A DNA stretch of 32,000 nucleotides. Source: Candidatus Harpocratesius repetitus (GTDB taxonomy: Archaea; Asgardarchaeota; Lokiarchaeia; Sigyniarchaeales; Promethearchaeaceae). Location: NCBI GenBank assembly GCA_021498095.1, contig JAIZWK010000001.1:4316768-4348767 (forward strand), read 5' to 3'. Below the pieces are notes generated by a model, which did no database searches, was not told the DNA's origin, and worked only from the letters and a program-made list of their open reading frames with translations. The stretch's first letter is position 1. Every line of letters begins with the position of its first letter. The position numbers and the translations under genes are program-made. Positions 2,764 through 12,172 of the stretch are shown here, in pieces.

Positions 2764-3861
2764 ATGGGAAAAGGAAAGTCCGTGAAAGGGTCAGCAAAAG
2801 AAAAGCATCCTTCTTATCATGAAAGGACTCAAAGAAAGGATGTAAAGAAGTTACGTAAGAAGGCATCCTCCAGAAAGTATGATTCGGCCCAAAAAACGGA
2901 AAATTCAATAAAAAAACCACAACAAGAGATAGAAAAATCACCAAAAATCCGAAAGGTAAAGGGACTTCCAAAAATTTCACCCCATCAGCAAGGAAAACAA
3001 GCTCACTCTCATTCTCGCTCGTTTGGTTATAGAGATCCCAAAATGGGTTCAGTAAGGGCTTTAATACCTGTTGAAGTAATACCACAATCCAAAAAGTCGC
3101 AAAATAAAATAAGAATTCAAAAAGCAAAAACTGGGAAAAATCAGCAAAGAGAACAAAAATCTCAAAAACTACAAAAAACTCATCAATTCCAAAAATCAAA
3201 AAAATCAAAATCTAAAAGTCAAGACATCAAATTTACAACACTAAACACCACAAATGTGCAAATTGTAAAAAAATACTTTGAAACCATTTCCCCTTCTCTC
3301 TTTGACACTATGGCTCGTAGTGGTCAATTTGTGCTTTATCAAGCTGAAGGGGAAGGATATGAGATATTCTTAGTTCCTAGCGAAATCAGTCCCCTTATCA
3401 AGCAGTTGAATAAAAATTTTCCACTGATGTATGCAGGTATTCCATTAGGATTTATGAAGCGCCAACAAACTCGAACAAGATTTGAACGACAGTTCTTTTT
3501 GTCTTTTGAAGGTGGGCGATTTTTATGGAAATATATTCAAAGCTATCTTCCAGAAATCAAAAATGAACTTCAATCGGTAATTCTGGATGAAGATGGTGAA
3601 AAAGCATTCTTTTATGGAAGAAATATTGAGATGGATGATGTTATTTCTGAAACTGAGAAATTAGTAAAAAAGAAAATTACTTTTGTATTAGATCAGAACA
3701 AAGAATATATCGGTTTAGCGCTTTTAATGGTAAAACAAGCAGGTACAGAAAAACCAGTCTTAGGAATCAAAACTCGGGATCTTTATAGTCGATCCCCTAA
3801 TTTTAAACTTAATCTTTTAAATTTAAGCGATGGGGGCAAATATTTAAGAAAGGGAAGTTGA
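2764..3861 (+). CDS. nip7: NIP7-like pre-PUA/PUA ribosome biogenesis protein with a ~155-aa Lys/Gln/Ser-rich N-terminal extension
   Basis: The C-terminal ~200 aa carry NIP7/UPF0113-like motifs (YAGIPLGF, FFLSFEG, EKAFFYGRNI, VLDQNKEYIGLAL, DGGKYLRKG). The gene lies 6 nt upstream of a NOP2-type methyltransferase. Confidence 0.75.
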   Translation: MGKGKSVKGSAKEKHPSYHERTQRKDVKKLRKKASSRKYDSAQKTENSIKKPQQEIEKSPKIRKVKGLPKISPHQQGKQAHSHSRSFGYRDPKMGSVRALIPVEVIPQSKKSQNKIRIQKAKTGKNQQREQKSQKLQKTHQFQKSKKSKSKSQDIKFTTLNTTNVQIVKKYFETISPSLFDTMARSGQFVLYQAEGEGYEIFLVPSEISPLIKQLNKNFPLMYAGIPLGFMKRQQTRTRFERQFFLSFEGGRFLWKYIQSYLPEIKNELQSVILDEDGEKAFFYGRNIEMDDVISETEKLVKKKITFVLDQNKEYIGLALLMVKQAGTEKPVLGIKTRDLYSRSPNFKLNLLNLSDGGKYLRKGS

Positions 3862-3867
3862 TTAAAA

Positions 3868-4842
3868 ATGCATGACGATACAAACAAAATATTAACATTG
3901 GCTGAAAGATTTGAATATTCTCCATTTATGATTCGTCAAATAATGAAAAACTTTCCAAATGACCATATAGCAGCATTGAAGGCTTTTGCCCAGCCTGCTC
4001 CAGAAACAATACGGGTTAATACTTTAAAAATATCTCCTGAAGAATTAAAAACAAGACTGGAAGAGAAGGGATTTAAATTAACCCCAGTAGAATGGTTGGA
4101 TTATGCTTTTCATGTAGATTCGACCCATACCCACCATACATTGGGAGCAACTCACGAATATTTGAAGGGTTTTTATTATTTACAGAGTTTAGGTTCAATG
4201 ATTCCAGTTCATCTGTTATATCCTAAACCCGGTGATCAAATATTAGATATGTGTGCAGCACCAGGGAGTAAAACGACTCAAATCGCCCAATACATGCAGA
4301 ATCAAGGTCAAATAATAGCAATCGATATTAAGAAATCACGGATAAATTCCTTAATTTCCAATATTCGGCGCATGGATGTTAGAAATGCAATTATTTTTCC
4401 TTTTGATGCCACTCAATTATATATTCAACATTTAGGTAAATTTCGACCGAATAAAATCCTTCTTGATGCACCTTGCACCGGGAGTGGTATATTAAGGCAT
4501 GATCCTTCGATAAAACGGATGAAAAATGACTCAAAAATTCATCGTTTGCGACAACAGCAAAAGAAACTACTAAAAGCTGGATTAAAGCTACTTCCTAAGG
4601 GAGGAACCTTAGTATATTCAACATGCTCATTTCATTATCAAGAAAATGAAATGGTGGTCGCTGAAGTATTAAAAGAAGTAAAAAACGTAGAAATTATTGA
4701 ACCTCAAGAAAATATCGGTTTGCCAGGATTCAGCCAAATTGATGACATGGAATTTGGATATAATTTACTAAAATCACGTAGACTTACTCCACATTTACAC
4801 AATTGTGACGCGTTTTTCTATTGCATTTTGCAGAAATCATGA
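3868..4842 (+). CDS. RsmB/NOP2/NSUN family RNA cytosine-C5 methyltransferase, Nop2-like
   Basis: IRVNTLK, LGATHEYLKGFYYLQ, LDMCAAPGSKT (SAM binding), LLDAPCTGSG and YSTCS (both catalytic Cys present). Confidence 0.93.
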   Translation: MHDDTNKILTLAERFEYSPFMIRQIMKNFPNDHIAALKAFAQPAPETIRVNTLKISPEELKTRLEEKGFKLTPVEWLDYAFHVDSTHTHHTLGATHEYLKGFYYLQSLGSMIPVHLLYPKPGDQILDMCAAPGSKTTQIAQYMQNQGQIIAIDIKKSRINSLISNIRRMDVRNAIIFPFDATQLYIQHLGKFRPNKILLDAPCTGSGILRHDPSIKRMKNDSKIHRLRQQQKKLLKAGLKLLPKGGTLVYSTCSFHYQENEMVVAEVLKEVKNVEIIEPQENIGLPGFSQIDDMEFGYNLLKSRRLTPHLHNCDAFFYCILQKS

Positions 4843-4865
4843 TGAAATAATAAAAATAATAGATT

Positions 4866-4894
4866 AAAAAAGGAAAAGCAGTGAAAAATTTTCA
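4866..4894. terminator. Putative terminator region between the convergent methyltransferase and GG-tail genes
   Basis: TGAAAA-A-TTTTCA inverted repeat at 4882-4894, plus a T6 tract on the minus strand (A6 at 4866-4871) just past the stop at 4901. Oligo-T termination is the archaeal norm. Confidence 0.4.
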
Positions 4895-4900
4895 TTGAAT

Positions 4901-5209
4901 TTATCCTCCACCTCGTAATAATTTTTTTCTAAATTGCGCCATTAATGATTGAACTGCATTTTCTTCTCCTTCAAAAACAATTTCAGTGCACGGAAGTAAA
5001 AATCCAGGAAAGCACTGAGAATTTGTCTCATTAACACATACCTTGCATGAATTCACATAAAAAAATGATTTTTTTGCAGATTTAGTTGTAGAATCTTTAT
5101 TTGGAGCACTTAAATTTTGAAAAAATGAAATGATTTCAGAACGCGAAATCCCACTGAAAATAGAGTGTCGAGAGGAAGAAGGAGCGGTAGAGGAAAAAGG
5201 GGGGAAAAT
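4901..5209 (-). CDS. Un-called ~102-aa MoaD-related C-terminal-domain protein (DUF1952-like) ending in RGGG; start codon uncertain
   Basis: Hand translation of the stop-free frame: IFPPFSSTAPSSSRHSIFSGISRSEIISFFQNLSAPNKDSTTKSAKKSFFYVNSCKVCVNETNSQCFPGFLLPCTEIVFEGEENAVQSLMAQFRKKLLRGGG*. The pattern FxGIS..(Y/F)xxNL..VxFEGxE..FxxKxxR(A/G)GG matches my recollection of the DUF1952/MoaD_arch family. There is no in-frame ATG/GTG/TTG in the first half, which explains why the track missed it. Confidence 0.72.
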   Translation of the reverse strand: MFPPFSSTAPSSSRHSIFSGISRSEIISFFQNLSAPNKDSTTKSAKKSFFYVNSCKVCVNETNSQCFPGFLLPCTEIVFEGEENAVQSLMAQFRKKLLRGGG

Positions 5210-5216
5210 TCATGAT

Positions 5217-5651
5217 TTATTCTTCAGGTTCATTTATAACATAACGGAAAGATTGCAACTCTTCAAGGGCATTAAGTTCTGTAATAAAACTTTGGATTTC
5301 TGTCATGTTATCTTCTAGAACATAGTTCCCGTAGATTGTATCATGATGAACAAATATATTTTTATTCAGAATGCTTTTATGATAATCTATTTCCAAACGA
5401 GTAATTTTCTTCTCTAATTTCGAATTTTGTTTGCTATAGGTTATCATAATACTGGCAGTCAATTCCGGTAACATGGCTTCAAAATCATGTGTAGATGAAA
5501 TTATAGCACCATCATCCAGATCCTTCTCAGCCATCAAACGTAAAAGCGCATCCCGCATAACATAAGAATTATTCTTATATTCTTTTTGATTTACCATGCG
5601 CTTTAAGAATCCCTTTAGAGAATCTGAAATATTAAAAGATATAATTGGAAT
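5217..5651 (-). CDS. NikR/CopG-type regulator (ribbon-helix-helix plus ACT-like domain), 144 aa, probable ATT start
   Basis: The frame extends 18 codons upstream of the called ATG (5597) to give (M)PIISFNISDSLKGFLKRMVNQKEYKNNSYVMRDALLRLM, a complete RHH. ATT at 5651 follows GGTGA plus a 5-nt spacer and an in-frame TAA. The C-terminal half has the NikR_C secondary-structure pattern. Confidence 0.75.
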   Translation of the reverse strand: MPIISFNISDSLKGFLKRMVNQKEYKNNSYVMRDALLRLMAEKDLDDGAIISSTHDFEAMLPELTASIMITYSKQNSKLEKKITRLEIDYHKSILNKNIFVHHDTIYGNYVLEDNMTEIQSFITELNALEELQSFRYVINEPEE

Positions 5652-5782
5652 TTAACTCACCAACACTCGAACTTATAATTTATAATAAGGAACTCTGGTT
5701 ATTAATAATTTTTTATACCAATTTTATTAATTAATCAACTAAATGTTTGAGGGTAATTCCTAAGCGAATAATTGGCGATTTT

Positions 5783-7261
5783 TTAAAGCAGAGAAGATAA
5801 TTTTTCTAAAGACACTTGTGATCTTATTCGATCTTCCAATTGGATGATAGAAATTTTATATTGAGCCGCAATCGATTCTAATACATCATATTCAATTTTA
5901 TAGTGAACAATTTTCTTTTCATCATCTAAAGCGATCTTGACGGGTATTTGATGTTCATTTTCGAAGATTTTTAATGTGACTTTAACGATTTTCCGCGGAA
6001 GGCATACACGGATTGTGTTATAAAAGCGAACACCCAAAGTTCCTGTTTGAATCAGAAGTTCTGCAATTAGATGGTCACGATTTTCTGGTGAACAAAGAAC
6101 TTGAATTTGATGTCCTGGTCGATTTTTTTTAGTAATCGTTGAAACTAAACTCACATCCAATGCACCTGCTTTTAAGAGAGAAGAATATATATTCCCTAAT
6201 AGTTCCCCCCGCACATCATCTATATTTGTTTCAATTACTGAAATTGGACGGGGCTGGGAAGATAACTTGTAAGTTCCAATAGTATATTGCCATACTTCAT
6301 TTAGTGGTTCTTGAGATACTGCAGTTTTATGCATATTTACTTGCAGTATTTGGAGAATATTGGCTTGATGAACTAATTCTATATTTCCAACTCCAATTCC
6401 GATATGTTTTACTGTGAAAAATTGAGATGGGATTTGTTGGGAGAGAAGATTAAATTTCTTTAAGCCTGCTAATAAAGCAACTCCAGTTGGAGTAGCAAGT
6501 TCTCGAGATTCTGGACCATATTTAAATATAAGTTCTGCATTAGAAAGGATTTCCAAAGTTGCAGGAGCAGGCACAGATACTATACCATGTGATATTTTTA
6601 CTTGGCCACCTCCTACTGCTATTGGATCAGCATAAATTTTAAACGAATTTAAAGAAGTAAAAGCACCTAAGAGATCTAAACCATAACCAACTCCGATTAA
6701 ATCAATAATCGTGTCTATTGCACCAATTTCATGTAAATGAATTTGATCGGGTGATAAATTGTGAATTTTAGCTTCAGCTTCCAGAATAGCCCTAAAACAA
6801 TAATGAATATAACTTTGTGCTACAGAAGACAGCCGTTCTCCTTTGCAAATTGCATCAATTTTATTTTTCATCCAAATAGGTGTAAGGAATTTAGGATGAA
6901 TTACATGTTGATGGATATAATTGTCTGTCTTTGGAGAAGTAATATCAAGATTAGATTTAGAAGGAGATTTTATTGATAATTTTATAGAATTGGAATCAAA
7001 TTGAATATGATGCTCTAAGTTTTCCGAACTGGGTTTAATTAAAAGATGAGAGCCGCTAATTCCATTGCTGATTTTACGATCTATTTTAATGCTCAAAGAT
7101 GAATATTCTTTAATATAGGATGGAATTTTATCTAAAAATCGCTGCATTTTATCATAAGAGATAATCTCAGCCAGAGCACTTAAAAATAAATCACCACTAA
7201 TACCTGCATAGCTGCATTTTATTATAAGTGCTTGTTCCATATGATCAAGTCCATGATTCAT
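5783..7261 (-). CDS. larC: Nickel-pincer cofactor nickel-insertion protein LarC, single uninterrupted ORF
   Basis: AGISGDLFLSAL, IHLHEIGAIDTIIDLIG, GGGQVKISHGIVSVPAPAT, ELATPTGVALL, ETNIDD, KKNRPG, TGTLGVR, KIEYD. The start may be the ATG at 7240. Confidence 0.92.
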   Translation of the reverse strand: MNHGLDHMEQALIIKCSYAGISGDLFLSALAEIISYDKMQRFLDKIPSYIKEYSSLSIKIDRKISNGISGSHLLIKPSSENLEHHIQFDSNSIKLSIKSPSKSNLDITSPKTDNYIHQHVIHPKFLTPIWMKNKIDAICKGERLSSVAQSYIHYCFRAILEAEAKIHNLSPDQIHLHEIGAIDTIIDLIGVGYGLDLLGAFTSLNSFKIYADPIAVGGGQVKISHGIVSVPAPATLEILSNAELIFKYGPESRELATPTGVALLAGLKKFNLLSQQIPSQFFTVKHIGIGVGNIELVHQANILQILQVNMHKTAVSQEPLNEVWQYTIGTYKLSSQPRPISVIETNIDDVRGELLGNIYSSLLKAGALDVSLVSTITKKNRPGHQIQVLCSPENRDHLIAELLIQTGTLGVRFYNTIRVCLPRKIVKVTLKIFENEHQIPVKIALDDEKKIVHYKIEYDVLESIAAQYKISIIQLEDRIRSQVSLEKLSSLL

Positions 7262-7291
7262 TAACCCACATTACTTAATTAGCTTACGGTT

Positions 7292-10129
7292 CTAATGAAA
7301 AAGAGCCCAAAGACGTATTAAATTAGCCCAGAATCGTTTTACAAACATTCCCGCAAAATAAAAGGCATTATCTTGAGCACGGAAATAATCCGGTTGAATG
7401 GATTTTTCACCCTTTAAGAGATTGGGATGAAGTAAAGCCCCACCAAAATTTGGTGATTTCCCAATTTCTCTTACTTTTTTCCATCTAATTTGATGAATTT
7501 CACCCTTTTCTTGATTTTGTATCAATCCTTCATATTCTAATATAGATACGGACCATGTCTTATCTGAAATATATTCAACTATTTCTCCTGATTTCATTTT
7601 TAATTGAAGAAGAAAATTTGCATAGCCTCTTGATTGAAGAAAATGACGGCACTCAACAACTAAAGAATTTTCCCCTAAGTGAATGAATTCAGAAAGATCA
7701 AATACTCGAACGGATTTTTTAATCGGCATTATAGATAGAGAAAAACGAGTCTCGGTGATACCAACAAAAACATTATTACAATAGATTTCGGCATGATTAC
7801 TTGCAATAACTTGAAGCAAAGCTTTCGAAATTTCACTATTTACTGTGAATGTTTTTCTGAATAATCGTGGTTGTGAATCAGATGCATAGCGATGAGACCA
7901 TATAAATTTTGATTTAAGATATGGAGAAATATTCACAGTATCTTCGATTCTTTGAAGATAACTACGATATTCATCATATACATTGAATAATTGATTATAT
8001 CTTAAAAGATGGCGTTCAAAATTAGGATATTTTGCACATTCAAGCCAAAAATGTTCATAATTTTTAAAATATTCAGAAAATTGGCTAAGATAAGAAGAGA
8101 TTTCATCATAAAGATTTAAGTTTTTACTTCTTTTGTCTTCAAGGGTTTTTAGTTTTGAGAATTTCTTAATTTTCTTTTTAAGAATAAGATGTTGAGCAAA
8201 TAAACTCATGGTTTTTAAACTAAATTGCCAAAATGGGATAAAATAATTATTAGTGGTTAATGAATCTTTAATTCTATTGAGGCTGTGATAGAGAATTTCT
8301 GCAGAAGAACGAATTTCTAATAATTGTTTGGATTTTAATTTGATTGATCTATAATAAAAGGGAACAGAGAAGAAAAGATCATAAAAATGTGTGTTTAGAA
8401 AGATATTTTTTCCTGAACATAAAGTGCTTAACTCTATAGTTTGGAGAAATATTTCTGTTATTCGATTTTCGATTTCATTATTTGCGGGAGAAAACAATAG
8501 AATAAGAAGATCCGCAATTAACTGTCTAAAATCTTGATTTGTTTGGTTCCAACTTAAAATATTTCCTAAAATTGTCCCATAAATGTGGTTTAAGCGCAAT
8601 GAATGATGTCCAAAATCCCCCCATGTGCTTACAAGTTGCCCTAAAATAAAAGGGAAATTCCGATATGAAGAATCATCGTAATTATCCCCAGAATTAAGAG
8701 AATTTTGAGAATTTCGAGATTGTGATTTACTTTTTAACAGTTGGCAATCTTGATTTAAGTGCAATACATTCTGATATGCATAAAAATAATGGGGAAAAGG
8801 CCTATACCAATTGAGAATTGATGGGCTAATAATTGTTTGATGGCCTAATATTGCCAATTTTCTGAAAACCTTTCTATATCTTTTTGTAGGAGAATAATTC
8901 CAATATACAACGATAATATCTGAAGGTAAATTTTCAAGTATGGAAGGATATTTTAATACTAAATCATGATAAAGCAATACTTTTTCAATACCGTTATTTT
9001 TGGCAATGTGATAGACTTTAAGAATATGATCATAAAGTGCCTGTTCGATCCCTACTGCTTTAATCAATTCTTTTGAGTTACCATGCCCCAAATCATATGT
9101 TTCATCACACCCTATATGTAAATATTTTTTAGGAAAATAAGCGCAAATTTCGGAGATGTACTCACGTAAAAACGGATAAATATTCCCATTGGCAATAGAA
9201 AGACAGTGAGAACCGGAAAATTCCCCCAAACTTGAATATTCAGGTAGTGTTAAGATATTATCCATGTGTCCTAGAGTTTCAATGATAGGAAATATTGTAA
9301 TATATCGAGATTTAGCATATTGTACAATTTCAAGTATTTCTTCTGAACTATATGCACCCCGATCGGCACCAATTTGAGGGTGTGAAGGAGTACGAATAAT
9401 ATCCTCAATGTACATAGCGTATGTATTAATTTTATATTGACTCCATAATTTCATTTCCCGTTTTAGTTCCTGTACAGTAGGGGCTTGCCCTCGAGACACA
9501 TCATCAGAAATCCCTCTTATTAAAAGATCAGGCCAATCTAAAATTTCTCCACATATTAGATAATATGGCGAAGAATTTACAAACTTTCCATCCATTTTAC
9601 CTAATTTAGTCGCTTCAAATGTTTCAAAGGTTTCAATTGTTTCTGCTGTTTCTGCTGTTTCTGTTATATTAGTTCTTATCTTTTTATTATACCTTTTCGC
9701 ATGCAAAAACAGTTGACGCAATGTTTGAAAAGAATTGAAAAGCCCATGAGTGGTGGAAGCAGTTAATAAAATGCCTTGAGGGCGAATCTCAATATAATAA
9801 GCTTCAGACCCTTTAGATGCGATGTCTTGATTAGTTTTGAAGTATTTAGTTTTTTTTTTTAGATAATTATCATCACTTCTAAAAATGATATTGAGGTGAA
9901 ATTCTTCGTTAAAATCACTCTTCATTTGCTTTAATACTTGATGAGAAGAATCAATATTTGATAAAATGCAAATTAAGTCTCCATCAATCATAGTGTAGGA
10001 TTTTAAAATTTTAGTTCTTTTGGGATAGGGAAGAATTTTTGGACGATTATATATTTCTCGCAGTTTTTCTGCAATTTTTGGATTATTAATTGGATTTGAT
10101 TGAATTAATATTTGAATATAAGAAATCAT
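7292..10129 (-). CDS. GH20 beta-N-acetylhexosaminidase (GcnA/HexD-like) with a C-terminal beta-sandwich domain
   Basis: GH20b domain (ILPYPK...EAYYIEI...GLFNSFQTLRQL), DWPDLLIRGISDDVSRG, PIIETLGHM and catalytic HIGCDE. The C-terminal PRLFRKTF...ASNHAEIYCN resembles the rhamnosidase-N/galactose-binding-like domain. No obvious signal peptide. Confidence 0.85.
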   Translation of the reverse strand: MISYIQILIQSNPINNPKIAEKLREIYNRPKILPYPKRTKILKSYTMIDGDLICILSNIDSSHQVLKQMKSDFNEEFHLNIIFRSDDNYLKKKTKYFKTNQDIASKGSEAYYIEIRPQGILLTASTTHGLFNSFQTLRQLFLHAKRYNKKIRTNITETAETAETIETFETFEATKLGKMDGKFVNSSPYYLICGEILDWPDLLIRGISDDVSRGQAPTVQELKREMKLWSQYKINTYAMYIEDIIRTPSHPQIGADRGAYSSEEILEIVQYAKSRYITIFPIIETLGHMDNILTLPEYSSLGEFSGSHCLSIANGNIYPFLREYISEICAYFPKKYLHIGCDETYDLGHGNSKELIKAVGIEQALYDHILKVYHIAKNNGIEKVLLYHDLVLKYPSILENLPSDIIVVYWNYSPTKRYRKVFRKLAILGHQTIISPSILNWYRPFPHYFYAYQNVLHLNQDCQLLKSKSQSRNSQNSLNSGDNYDDSSYRNFPFILGQLVSTWGDFGHHSLRLNHIYGTILGNILSWNQTNQDFRQLIADLLILLFSPANNEIENRITEIFLQTIELSTLCSGKNIFLNTHFYDLFFSVPFYYRSIKLKSKQLLEIRSSAEILYHSLNRIKDSLTTNNYFIPFWQFSLKTMSLFAQHLILKKKIKKFSKLKTLEDKRSKNLNLYDEISSYLSQFSEYFKNYEHFWLECAKYPNFERHLLRYNQLFNVYDEYRSYLQRIEDTVNISPYLKSKFIWSHRYASDSQPRLFRKTFTVNSEISKALLQVIASNHAEIYCNNVFVGITETRFSLSIMPIKKSVRVFDLSEFIHLGENSLVVECRHFLQSRGYANFLLQLKMKSGEIVEYISDKTWSVSILEYEGLIQNQEKGEIHQIRWKKVREIGKSPNFGGALLHPNLLKGEKSIQPDYFRAQDNAFYFAGMFVKRFWANLIRLWALFH
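9612..9663. repeat. In-frame 9-bp tandem repeat (~6 units) inside the GH20 gene
   Basis: GTTTC/GCTTC recurs at 9612, 9621, 9630, 9639, 9648 and 9657, and encodes ETA-ETA-ETI-ETF-ETF-EAT on the minus strand. Confidence 0.9.
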
Positions 10130-10253
10130 TTTTTCTTCAGCTTTTAGTTCTTAATTATATTTGGATGTAAAGAAATAAAAATGGAATTGGATATTATATT
10201 AATATTAGTAAAACAACATTTTCTTGATTCAAACTTAATCACAGTGTGAGAAT

Positions 10254-11006
10254 ATGAGCCAACAACAAGATGAGATGCCAACCTTAGAAGGAATGATGAC
10301 CGCTTTACCCGCAACTTTTTTAAGTCTATTAAATGTTGAAGTCCCCAGTTTTCTCACACCTCCAATTCAACCTTTAATTGATCTCTTTGCTCCACGTGGA
10401 ATCAAGCGTATAATTATTAACTTAATTGATCAATTTGGATTGTTTGAAATCACTATTCATAAACCACCATTTTTAATTTCTCAAGCGAATGCACTTGTGC
10501 TTCTTAGTACTTCGAATCCTTATCTTCATGGAGTTTTGTTCAATACATTTTTTGGTGGATTTGAATTTGAACCAAATGGATTCCATCTTCTTCGTTATCT
10601 TCAGGAACAAGGAAAATCAACAGTATTTGTTGGTCGAGAACGCGATATTCAACGATATAATGGAGGTACCCCTTCAATTGCAAAATCTACAGATATGGCA
10701 ACTTGGATTGAAGCTGCAAAAGTTGTAAACAGACATGATTTATCAATTTTACATTATTTAGATTTTGAAGATATATCTGCAAAGGGACAGAAAACATCAG
10801 CGAAAAATTTAGAAGAACTTTCTCAAAAATTAATAAGAAGAACAGATAAATGGTTGAAAAGCACATTTCTTCAACTTCGATCAAAAAGTTTAATGGTCGT
10901 TTTAAGTAATCATGGAAGATATAAAATTGATCTAAATTATCAAGGTAAAGCAGGAGAATGGAGGAGTGCTTCAGTTCCCTTGGCAATCTGCATATATAAA
11001 GAATAA
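10254..11006 (+). CDS. Alkaline-phosphatase/phosphodiesterase-superfamily fold protein with a degenerate active site
   Basis: LPATFLSLL, RIIINLIDQFG, ILHYLDFED, IRRTDKWL, MVVLSNHG and VPL occur in the AlkP motif order, but the nucleophile and several metal ligands are substituted. Confidence 0.55.
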   Translation: MSQQQDEMPTLEGMMTALPATFLSLLNVEVPSFLTPPIQPLIDLFAPRGIKRIIINLIDQFGLFEITIHKPPFLISQANALVLLSTSNPYLHGVLFNTFFGGFEFEPNGFHLLRYLQEQGKSTVFVGRERDIQRYNGGTPSIAKSTDMATWIEAAKVVNRHDLSILHYLDFEDISAKGQKTSAKNLEELSQKLIRRTDKWLKSTFLQLRSKSLMVVLSNHGRYKIDLNYQGKAGEWRSASVPLAICIYKE

Positions 11007-11209
11007 TCCTAAAAATTTTCAATAAATTTTTTATTCATATCAATTTTTCGCTAATTAGCTATTTGTCTCAATTTTATTTGTTAAAAATTTATTTCTGCTC
11101 GATATTTTTAATATATTTAGGTTTTTAGATACCTTGATATATATTATTAAAGTTAGAAAAAAATTGAGCAAAAGATAGATAAAAAAAGCAAAAAATTTGA
11201 AGTTCAGCG

Positions 11210-12172
11210 TTAGAATGGTTTAGCAAATTTTATTGCGTCATGAGGGCAGTGTTCCATACATTCAAGACAGAGAATGCATTCACCATTACCTGTAAAACCA
11301 TCGAAACCTTCATCAAGAATTCGAACCTGCATTGGACAGACTTGTTCGCAAATTCCACATTCCTTTCGACCTGGACAGCGAGTTGGTAAACGTTTCAATT
11401 TCAAGAAACTATATTTTGAAACTTGTTTAATTGCTGCACCATAAGGACAAAGATATTTACAATAAAAACGTGGATAATAAATCGAAAAGCCTAAAATTAT
11501 TAAATAAACAAAGAAAATAATAGTACGGACTCTATTTTCAGGAGTAAAAAGTTGATCCACGGCAGCATTATCAACAATACTTTGAATGATATCAGGAAAA
11601 GTAACAAAGAAAAATTCAGAAAATGAGAAAGGACCAACGGGATTAATTGCAAAAAGTCCTAATGCTTTAGAATAATCAGAATAATTTTTTGGATTATTTG
11701 TATAATAATAACCTAATGGAATTAGTAATACAAATAAGACAACTAGAACAAAACCTTTTACCTTTTTCAAAGCGCGATCAGTATTAAGAGAAAATCGGTT
11801 GTTTTCATTAGCAATTCCAGCTAAAAGATCTTGAATAAATCCAGTAGGACACATCCAACCACAGAATATTCTCCCTGTAAAAAGACCAAATGCTCCAATT
11901 AAACCTAAAAACAAATAGGGCACTTTTCCATCAATGATGGTGTGAAAGACGTATTCAAGAAGACCAGCTCCAGCAGTCCAAGCGCTATCAGCTGAATGTA
12001 AAAAGGGTAGAACCCGAAGAAAATCTTGAATTGCAGAAAAATCAGTTTTGAAAATAAATTCCAAAATAGCATAATTGACTAAGAAAAAGGATAAAAATTG
12101 GATAACCGTCCGACTGATTTTGATAACTGGTAATCCTTTCGATTTTTCAGTAGATAATGAGGTGCTCATCAA
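11210..12172 (-). CDS. Membrane-bound 4Fe-4S polyferredoxin, NapH/MauN/RdxA-like
   Basis: FCGWMCPTG and YCKYLCPYG (CxxxCP motifs), two C-terminal CxxCxxxCP ferredoxin motifs, and 4-5 hydrophobic segments. Confidence 0.88.
   Translation of the reverse strand: MMSTSLSTEKSKGLPVIKISRTVIQFLSFFLVNYAILEFIFKTDFSAIQDFLRVLPFLHSADSAWTAGAGLLEYVFHTIIDGKVPYLFLGLIGAFGLFTGRIFCGWMCPTGFIQDLLAGIANENNRFSLNTDRALKKVKGFVLVVLFVLLIPLGYYYTNNPKNYSDYSKALGLFAINPVGPFSFSEFFFVTFPDIIQSIVDNAAVDQLFTPENRVRTIIFFVYLIILGFSIYYPRFYCKYLCPYGAAIKQVSKYSFLKLKRLPTRCPGRKECGICEQVCPMQVRILDEGFDGFTGNGECILCLECMEHCPHDAIKFAKPF

Follow-up and report, generated by a model that had tools for sequence, protein, structure and literature searches.

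The window analysed here is a stretch of 32,000 nucleotides from the genome of Candidatus Harpocratesius repetitus (G000). At positions 4901-7261 lie three contiguous minus-strand genes in the same orientation, encoding LarC, a regulator with the NikR fold, and a DUF1952-like protein with a carboxyl-terminal Gly-Gly (GG) tail. A sequence-only reading had described this layout. Rereading of the sequence bears it out, including the 131-bp gap between larC and the regulator gene, and profile and structure matches agree with the identities given to all three genes. The regulator and GG genes nearly abut, as had also been described, if the GG gene is taken to begin at the ATG at 5213-5211, 3 nt past the regulator stop codon TAA (5219-5217), and not otherwise. 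The features are as follows.

5783-7261, minus strand: larC, encoding a fused LarC1+LarC2 protein of 492 aa (PF01969, TIGR00299, NF052512)
5652-5782, minus strand: larC-regulator spacer of 131 bp, with A/T-rich TATA-like boxes and GGTGA, read from the sequence
5217-5651, minus strand: NikR-fold regulator gene, stop to stop, 144 aa, RHH plus ACT-like (NikR_C) domains (PF08753, Foldseek)
5194-5208, minus strand: T4-C6-T5 homopolymer run, in which the GG gene shifts frame by 1 nt (tblastn frame switch)
4901-5213, minus strand: GG-tailed MoaD_arch/DUF1952 gene, frameshifted (orthologs in G002 and P0002; fold match to the 1v8c carboxyl-terminal domain)

The larC product matches the Ni_insertion model PF01969 over its full length (E 5.5e-91; 305.9 bits, cut-off 22.1). 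It also exceeds the cut-offs of both NCBIfam equivalogs: TIGR00299 for LarC1 (143.8 bits, cut-off 90), and NF052512 for LarC2 (115.1 bits, cut-off 50). Judging from these matches, 5783-7261 is a genuine nickel-insertion (cyclometallase) gene in which LarC1 and LarC2 are fused. It is present in single copy, and larC occurs in 39 of the 41 genomes of the order. In its profile matches, and in sharing a genome with larB, larE, and larA-like genes, it resembles the LarC1/LarC2 of Lactiplantibacillus plantarum. However, the Lokiarchaeial lar genes are dispersed, with no larABCDE operon, and the product has about 90 residues beyond the Pfam model, near residues 60-130.

The sequence-only reading had placed larB and larE outside the window, and both are indeed found elsewhere in the 4.36-Mb genome; like the larA-like genes (Lar_N matches), they lie megabases from larC. 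LarE scores 222.6 bits against TIGR00268 (cut-off 150) and is of the three-Cys type. Its CxxC...C motif is one that we take to mark a non-sacrificial, cluster-type LarE. The LarB-type ORF is intact at 263 aa; a supposed TAA inside larB was rejected, because it falls on the margin of the match and the ORF is whole. LarC would insert the nickel in a nickel-pincer-nucleotide (NPN) pathway that is complete, though its genes are dispersed.

The regulator has the two-domain architecture of NikR, RHH plus ACT-like, as seen in the E. coli, P. horikoshii, and H. pylori structures. Its best 30 Foldseek matches are all NikR (E 1.3e-7), and its carboxyl-terminal domain superimposes on 1q5y with a TM-score of 0.90 (rmsd 1.3 Å, 83 residues). 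The same domain matches PF08753 at E 1.3e-4 (22.6 bits, cut-off 22). The amino-terminal domain matches ParD and NikR RHH sequences and carries a conserved PIISFNISDSLK...RDAL.RL motif; its sequence is nearer the RHH of ParD antitoxins (E 1.6e-5). Sequence matches to NikR span the full length and are weak: against the NCBIfam NikR equivalogs the best score is 27.4 bits, far below cut-offs of 83-175.

The high-affinity, square-planar nickel site of NikR is formed by three His residues and one Cys: H76', H87, H89, and C95 in E. coli; H78, H89, H91, and C97 in P. horikoshii. In a profile alignment to 2bj1, the regulator has I, S/N, V, and K at these positions, none of them a ligand. The protein lacks Cys altogether, and a comparison of 12 orthologs shows that its His residues are not kept beyond the genus. 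Charged residues that are conserved in the carboxyl-terminal domain include K82, E87, K97, E113, E125, R136, and Y137. Either the regulator lost the His3Cys site or it never had one; whatever it senses would then not be Ni(II) bound as in NikR. Since this site is absent, the label "NikR-like" beside a nickel enzyme can mislead.

The regulator gene most likely begins with an unusual codon. The first canonical start, the ATG at 5597, would remove the RHH β-strand; the full domain needs the ATT at 5651-5649, right behind an in-frame TAA. Orthologs in the order match the full length, residues 1-144, and the codon preceding PIIS is ATG in six of 12 and ATT in the other six. The ATT follows a Shine-Dalgarno-like GGTGA (5657-5661) at a distance of 5 nt. 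The arrangement GGTGA-N5-ATG has four occurrences in the window, where the expected number is 0.61.

Further upstream, the spacer contains TATA-like boxes, the palindrome TTATTAATAA at 5699-5708 and TTATTATAAATTATAA at 5673-5688. The element AAATTATTAA is kept upstream of the regulator gene in two genera (g1 and g6), and promoter-like spacers of 100-290 bp precede the gene. On its sequence, the spacer may act as the regulator's own A/T-rich promoter.

The third gene ends in ...LLRGGG followed by TAA at 4901-4903. Its relatives include a 103-aa protein from Ca. Harpocratesius sp. (P0002, 91% identical) and a 99-aa ortholog with an ATG start in the congener G002 (49% identical). The family comprises 128 representatives at 50% clustering, with members of about 85 aa. 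Nearly all of the 128 end in GG; the motif is at least 90% conserved in 82 aligned members, within a near-invariant tail, ...F(L/M)x(A/G)GG. An AF2 model (pLDDT 76) predicts a β-α-β3-α fold with the tail following a helix.

Several comparisons lead to the same structure. The family profile matches residues 95-152 of the 1v8c carboxyl-terminal domain (E 0.0019), and this domain is the best Foldseek match (probability 0.99). VIA-align places the protein on chain range 85-165 of 1v8c with Z 9.1 (rmsd 3.2 Å, 79 residues), the only chain among 48,161 with Z of at least 8. The ortholog P0001 has a precomputed PF09189 match, and Atlas neighbour clusters carry PF09189 on 32-94% of their members. However, hmmscan and a genome search found no PF09189 match for the family. 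Pfam and NCBIfam scans of ten members gave nothing significant, only sub-threshold matches to TIGR04140; a word-indexed protein search recovered nothing but its query, the G002 ortholog; and no literature was found under the name DUF1952. A 51-aa CxxC zinc-ribbon peptide from the GTG at 5056 was rejected, as the 35 residues upstream of it are conserved in orthologs.

On these sequence and model-based matches, the GG protein is best taken as a standalone MoaD_arch/DUF1952 domain with a TBP-like fold; the sequence-only reading had already called it DUF1952-like. It shares with 1v8c the fold, the carboxyl-terminal GG, and a family link or fusion to MoaD-type Ubls. Unlike 1v8c, it stands alone in an Asgard host, falls under the Pfam threshold by hmmscan, has no MoaD or E1 neighbour in Lokiarchaeia, and is frameshifted in the window. 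With the carriers ThiS, MoaD, TtuB, Urm1, and SAMP it has in common a carboxyl-terminal Gly-Gly after a small or hydrophobic stretch and, in Clostridia, ThiF/MoeB-type E1 genes beside family members. The fold, however, is not β-grasp: the structural matches fall on the non-β-grasp domain of 1v8c, and the protein has no ThiS or MoaD match in Pfam.

The frameshift separates the start codon from the body of the gene. Translation from the ATG at 5213-5211 runs in frame -1. The body (4904-5209) occupies frame -2, one base out, and the GG frame (4901-5209) has no ATG, GTG, or TTG ahead of the GTG at 5056. P0002, which reads MNFPAFSS... in a single frame, aligns to the window by tblastn with residues 1-6 in frame -1 and residues 3-103 in frame -2. 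This switch, at 5194-5208, places a 1-nt frameshift within the T4-C6-T5 run. Over 4850-5750 the sequence is identical to that of a Logan contig (depth 21), so neither the frameshift nor the TAA is an artefact of the deposited assembly; the reads behind this contig come from a run of the probable source sample (sequencing platform not on record) and do not represent independent DNA. The GG gene in this genome is presumably a pseudogene, disabled just past its start codon.

It is improbable that the gene is still alive, through a +1 ribosomal slip on CCC-CCC-U after the ATG at 5213 or through an in-frame ATT start at 5209. tRNA-Pro can re-pair +1 within C6, and the slipped product would read MNFPPFSS..., in line with MNFPAFSS... 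in the relative. The body remains 91% identical to the intact P0002, with no further stops, and the neighbouring regulator gene apparently uses ATT. Yet no stimulatory slow codon or stop lies behind the slip site, congeneric orthologs have plain in-frame ATG starts, and an intact body is also expected after a recent frameshift.

Further loci of the GG family were retrieved with a 16-sequence subset ending FRL[RK]FLSAGG, and are biased to Clostridia and Desulfosporosinus. Among them, eight Clostridial loci contain AOR-ThiS-GG-ThiF clusters with TAATG stop/start overlap, a translational coupling of the GG gene to AOR-linked MoaD/ThiS, and in six Clostridial loci ThiF is adjacent to the GG gene. 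The conserved partners are AOR, ThiS/MoaD, and ThiF/MoeB; Desulfosporosinus members instead lie beside YgbA_NO and RluA. Haloarchaea and Thermus have MoaD-MoaD_arch fusions with two GG motifs. Gene neighbourhoods of the AOR-MoaD-MoeB type have been described (PMC1779556), and the suggestion that GG-tailed TBP-like proteins are analogues of Ubls has been made before (Makarova & Koonin 2010; PMC2948915).

Lokiarchaeial GG genes have other neighbours: DJ-1/PfpI; PhoU-like and ATPase subunit K genes; and an aldo-keto reductase. None of these loci has MoaD, ThiF, or AOR next to the GG gene, and the window's genome has neither a fusion nor an adjacency to MoaD/ThiS; for Lokiarchaeia the link to MoaD is thus carried over from what is seen in bacteria and haloarchaea. 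The ThiF-family genes of this genome lie at 0.42, 0.43, 2.40, 3.08, and 3.32 Mb, with no E1 gene near the GG gene. Taken together, the MoaD-like tail, the coupling to AOR-linked MoaD/ThiS, the adjacency to ThiF/MoeB, and the MoaD fusions suggest the role of an E1 substrate, not of a sulfur donor to LarE. By this analogy, the family may serve a MoeB/UbaA-type E1 as an accessory or alternative substrate, either in molybdopterin/tungsten-cofactor chemistry or in chemistry of the SAMP type.

These contexts bear directly on the proposal of the sequence-only reading: a nickel/sulfur module, in which a thiocarboxylated GG protein gives sulfur to a LarE-type PP-loop enzyme, with larC and the GG gene under the RHH regulator. 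Here and in G002 alike, the three genes follow one another in a single orientation, the family tail is near-invariant, and the LarE of this genome has the CxxC...C motif. However, the GG gene stands beside the regulator gene in only these two genomes of one genus; the congener G001 has a TPR gene in its place, and genera beyond Harpocratesius have the GG homolog elsewhere or not at all. In 33 bacterial and five other Lokiarchaeial loci, the roughly 6 kb on either side of the GG gene contain no homolog of LarC or of the regulator, and no lar gene is near any of these 38 family members. The family was found in seven of 400 genomes sampled across the phylum, against 39 of 41 for larC in the order, and so shows no specific co-occurrence with it.

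Gene neighbourhood and co-occurrence, set beforehand as the refuting test of such a module, thus largely speak against it: the adjacency is not conserved, and there is no link to lar genes. Family partners are AOR, MoaD, and ThiF, no E1 gene lies nearby, the GG gene in the window is frameshifted, and the regulator lacks the nickel ligands. The module is unsupported as a functional unit and very improbable. The caution voiced with the proposal, that the linkage could be incidental, proves the better reading.

Counted in an order-level genome sample, a regulator homolog is present, in single copy, in 37 of 41 genomes. In the family to which Harpocratesius belongs (f1) it directly follows larC in 13 of 13 genomes from seven genera, with order and orientation kept. 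Here the pair lies within a wider inherited block: a GH20-like gene, larC, the regulator gene, then convergent NOP2-NIP7. The pair outlasts its neighbours (13/13, versus 10/13 for GH20-larC and 7/13 for regulator-NOP2), and persists in three genomes (G003, G004, G005) where both flanks differ, which leaves room for some functional coupling.

Such coupling could be regulatory, with the GG gene incidental: the ACT-like domain would respond to nickel bound by non-canonical ligands, or else to a precursor or product of NPN, and the RHH domain would control larC, its own promoter, or both. Besides the conserved pairing, the NikR fold and the conserved charged residues of the carboxyl-terminal domain favour this arrangement, which is possible though unlikely. 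However, all four nickel ligands are replaced, and no His is conserved beyond the genus; the pair belongs to a larger inherited block; and a promoter-like spacer of its own precedes the regulator gene. Moreover, no genome of families f2-f4 has its single-copy ortholog next to larC, and in the sister family f3 this ortholog follows, in conserved synteny, a PCI/DDRGK/E3_UFM1_ligase-like (UFL1/DDRGK-like) gene. The position after larC is probably inherited, family-level synteny, whether or not control of larC comes with it.

The evidence favours three separate functional units over a single module, with a probability of roughly 0.68: larC; the regulator, which would be an order-wide, single-copy DNA-binding protein of RHH plus ACT-like (NikR-fold) architecture; and the GG gene, a late arrival. 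The last was probably inserted between the regulator gene and convergent NOP2 in this genus only, and is disabled in this genome by the 1-nt frameshift. A more far-reaching alternative would have the standalone MoaD_arch GG proteins of Clostridia, haloarchaea, and Lokiarchaeia form a second, non-β-grasp class of E1-activated carriers or modifiers, with one copy recruited behind larC and the regulator gene to feed the cluster-type LarE in the Harpocratesius lineage. We regard this as a long shot.

As annotated, the locus is an ordinary one, made up of a LarC gene, an RHH/ACT regulator that is uncharacterised, and a small gene in decay. Neither the GG family nor the regulator changes the current understanding of nickel-pincer cofactor synthesis. 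The GG-tailed MoaD_arch family itself offers a compact candidate, open to testing, for a carrier that is ubiquitin-like without having the ubiquitin fold. This idea was raised in 2010, and its reach now takes in Asgard archaea as well as the tight AOR-MoaD-ThiF clusters of Clostridia.

The three genes at 4901-7261 all lie on the minus strand and are co-oriented, as the sequence-only reading had it. The window covers positions 4,316,768-4,348,767 of a genome that is closed at 4.36 Mb and has a GC content of about 32%; its relatives are Lokiarchaeial (Promethearchaeia) genomes. The layout is:

5783-7261, minus strand: larC
5652-5782: larC-regulator spacer, 131 bp
5217-5651, minus strand: NikR-fold regulator; stop-to-stop frame, 144 codons
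4901-5209, minus strand: GG frame; stop-to-stop, 102 codons, C-terminal end ...LLRGGG

The gap between larC and the regulator has the length first described. The regulator and the GG gene nearly abut if one counts from an ATG (5213-5211), 3 nt past the regulator TAA; the GG frame itself spans 4901-5209.

The larC assignment is secure. Its product matches PF01969 (5.5e-91) and the NCBIfam models LarC1 (143.8 bits; cut-off 90) and LarC2 (115.1 bits; cut-off 50), and the gene is present in a single copy. All other nickel-pincer pathway genes are present, scattered through the genome: a LarB-type ORF at 3.67 Mb (263 aa, intact); LarE at 1.47 Mb (222.6 bits; G000:C1:1469508-1470377, or L002:1420-2289 in the extracted locus); and Lar_N proteins at 0.93 and 0.015 Mb. 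larB and larE do lie outside the window, as noted earlier. This LarE carries a CxxC plus the Cys of ACLASR, a three-Cys pattern characteristic of the Fe-S-cluster, non-sacrificial LarE class.

Sequence evidence that the regulator is a NikR is weak, with a NikR_C match of 22.6 bits (cut-off 22) and at most 27 bits for the NCBIfam NikR equivalogs, whose cut-offs are 83-175. The fold assignment comes from structure. In an AF2 model built from 12 orthologs (C-terminal-domain pLDDT ~90), the top Foldseek rows are NikR structures throughout (E 1.3e-7), and the C-terminal domain superposes on 1q5y with TM 0.90 and rmsd 1.3 A. NikR shares the RHH plus ACT-like architecture with the regulator, but the His/Cys nickel site is found only in NikR. 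In a profile alignment, the Pyrococcus horikoshii NikR ligands H78, H89, H91 and C97 align with non-ligand residues; the regulator has no Cys, and its His residues are unconserved among orthologs. The protein therefore works in the manner of a NikR-type RHH/ACT regulator, yet it lacks the nickel site by which a NikR is defined.

The first canonical start comes only after the RHH strand (PIISFNISD...). Immediately in front of this strand stands ATG in six of 12 orthologs and ATT in the other six, including this one (ATT also at loci L022, L025, L027, L028 and L031). Here an in-frame TAA directly precedes the ATT, and GGTGA sits 5 nt to its 5' side (element 5649-5661); GGTGA-N5-ATG occurs four times, versus 0.61 expected, within the window's ribosomal-protein operon. 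Translation likely begins at ATT, and this archaeal regulator probably keeps AUU as a conserved start codon.

Within the order, 37 of 41 genomes encode the regulator and 39 of 41 encode larC. The two are adjacent and co-oriented in all 13 genomes of the window's family that have both (13/13), and in no genome of the other three families (f2-f4). Within the window's family both genes belong to a more extensive run of synteny (c7, c6, c3, a GH20-like gene, larC, regulator, then convergent NOP2-like and NIP7-like genes), so much of their adjacency is accounted for by shared ancestry. Even so, three genomes of the family retain the pair despite both flanks differing. In f3, the gene immediately upstream of the regulator ortholog instead encodes a 788-aa protein with PCI, DDRGK, E3_UFM1_ligase and VPS28 matches. 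Together, these observations make a regulatory link between regulator and larC possible, though we consider it unlikely.

In this block (window 2764-12172; L104-L115) the NIP7-like protein has a polybasic N-terminal extension, and the GH20-like protein, of 945 aa, is followed by genes of 250 aa and 320 aa. The 788-aa f3 protein is a UFL1/DDRGK1-like eukaryotic-signature protein (L090-L097, L102, L103; for example L093:1523-3886), with membrane proteins of the DsbD_2 and Tmemb_14 types encoded ahead of it.

The real length of the GG protein is about 100 aa, not the 51 aa of a product from a GTG: the ortholog in the congener G002 has 99 aa and an ATG start, and P0002, a 91%-identical protein named Candidatus Harpocratesius sp., has 103. 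Residues 1-6 and 3-103 of P0002 map to two successive window frames, placing a 1-nt frameshift within a T4-C6-T5 run (5194-5208). A separately built Logan assembly, from sequencing of what is probably the source sample, is identical there, although it is not independent DNA. Slippage by +1 at C6 could mechanically keep the gene readable, but this is unsupported; most probably it became a pseudogene recently. It adjoins the regulator only in this genome and G002. A TPR gene takes its place in G001, another member of the genus; in other genera of the family the homolog neighbours DJ-1/PfpI, PhoU-like plus ATPase subunit K, or aldo-keto reductase genes, or is absent. As judged from sequence, the GG gene is broken and recently placed here. 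All three annotations are right, but the proposed module of larC, regulator and GG gene is not supported.

The DUF1952-like identity of the GG protein was correctly recognized. Its AF2 model (pLDDT 76; beta-alpha-beta3-alpha) best matches, by Foldseek and exhaustive VIA-align, the C-terminal domain of 1v8c, a Thermus 'MoaD related protein' (Z 9.1; the sole chain with Z >= 8). The family profile matches the same region (E 0.0019), which is PF09189 (DUF1952, now MoaD_arch), and PF09189 is precomputed on the G002 ortholog and also occurs on neighbouring Atlas clusters; no Pfam or NCBIfam model reached threshold in ten members scanned. Searching 1.8 billion representatives in full with HMMER gave 128 members, mostly 83-90 aa, nearly all ending in F(R)xxF(L/M)x(A/G)GG. 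In a sample of 400 genomes from the phylum, the protein was found in seven, all of them in the window's archaeal family (f1).

Among 33 loci from species-representative genomes, LarC or the regulator was found at none, contrary to a conserved adjacency with lar genes. Eight Clostridial ones have AOR, ThiS/MoaD and the GG gene (L040, L041, L043, L044, L063, L064, L071, L072), plus divergent ThiF in six; the ThiS stop and GG start are separated by 3-5 nt or share a TAATG overlap. This arrangement is one of translational coupling; at L064 both genes are truncated copies with the TAATG overlap. Another thirteen, from Desulfosporosinus, have RluA, YgbA_NO and the GG gene. There (L048-L062) the GG gene always follows genes for YgbA_NO (NO-stimulated, Cys-rich) and an RluA-type pseudouridine synthase, with rubrerythrin, NUDIX and MFS genes nearby, a conserved context unlike the Clostridial one.

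Among haloarchaea, longer relatives occur as fusions in which MoaD/SAMP1 (...PPVAGG) is joined through an acidic linker to MoaD_arch (...MRAGG). P0131, P0136, P0139, P0142, P0147 and P0152 (203-221 aa) have two GG motifs per chain, which suggests polyubiquitin-precursor-like processing or a tethered mimic. The window's genome has six AOR genes, four with a ThiS/MoaD-like gene within ~3 kb (AOR at 2105977, 2708563, 3056049 and 4298085; ThiS-like at 2108509, 2706206, 3053056 and 4300273, respectively); one such pair lies ~21 kb from the GG gene.

AOR-MoaD-MoeB tungsten-cofactor neighbourhoods were described by Iyer et al. 2006 (PMC1779556). Makarova and Koonin 2010 (PMC2948915) listed arCOG06308 (TBP-like fold, GG C-terminus, associated with MoaD-like Ubls) and suggested that such proteins are functional counterparts of Ubls that lack the beta-grasp fold. 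For the GG protein, an E1-activated GG tail would be plausible chemistry. The suggestion of a sulfur carrier survives to that extent, with MoaD, MoeB and AOR as partners in place of Lar proteins. The GG gene is a new Asgard representative of a kind already known, though uncharacterised.
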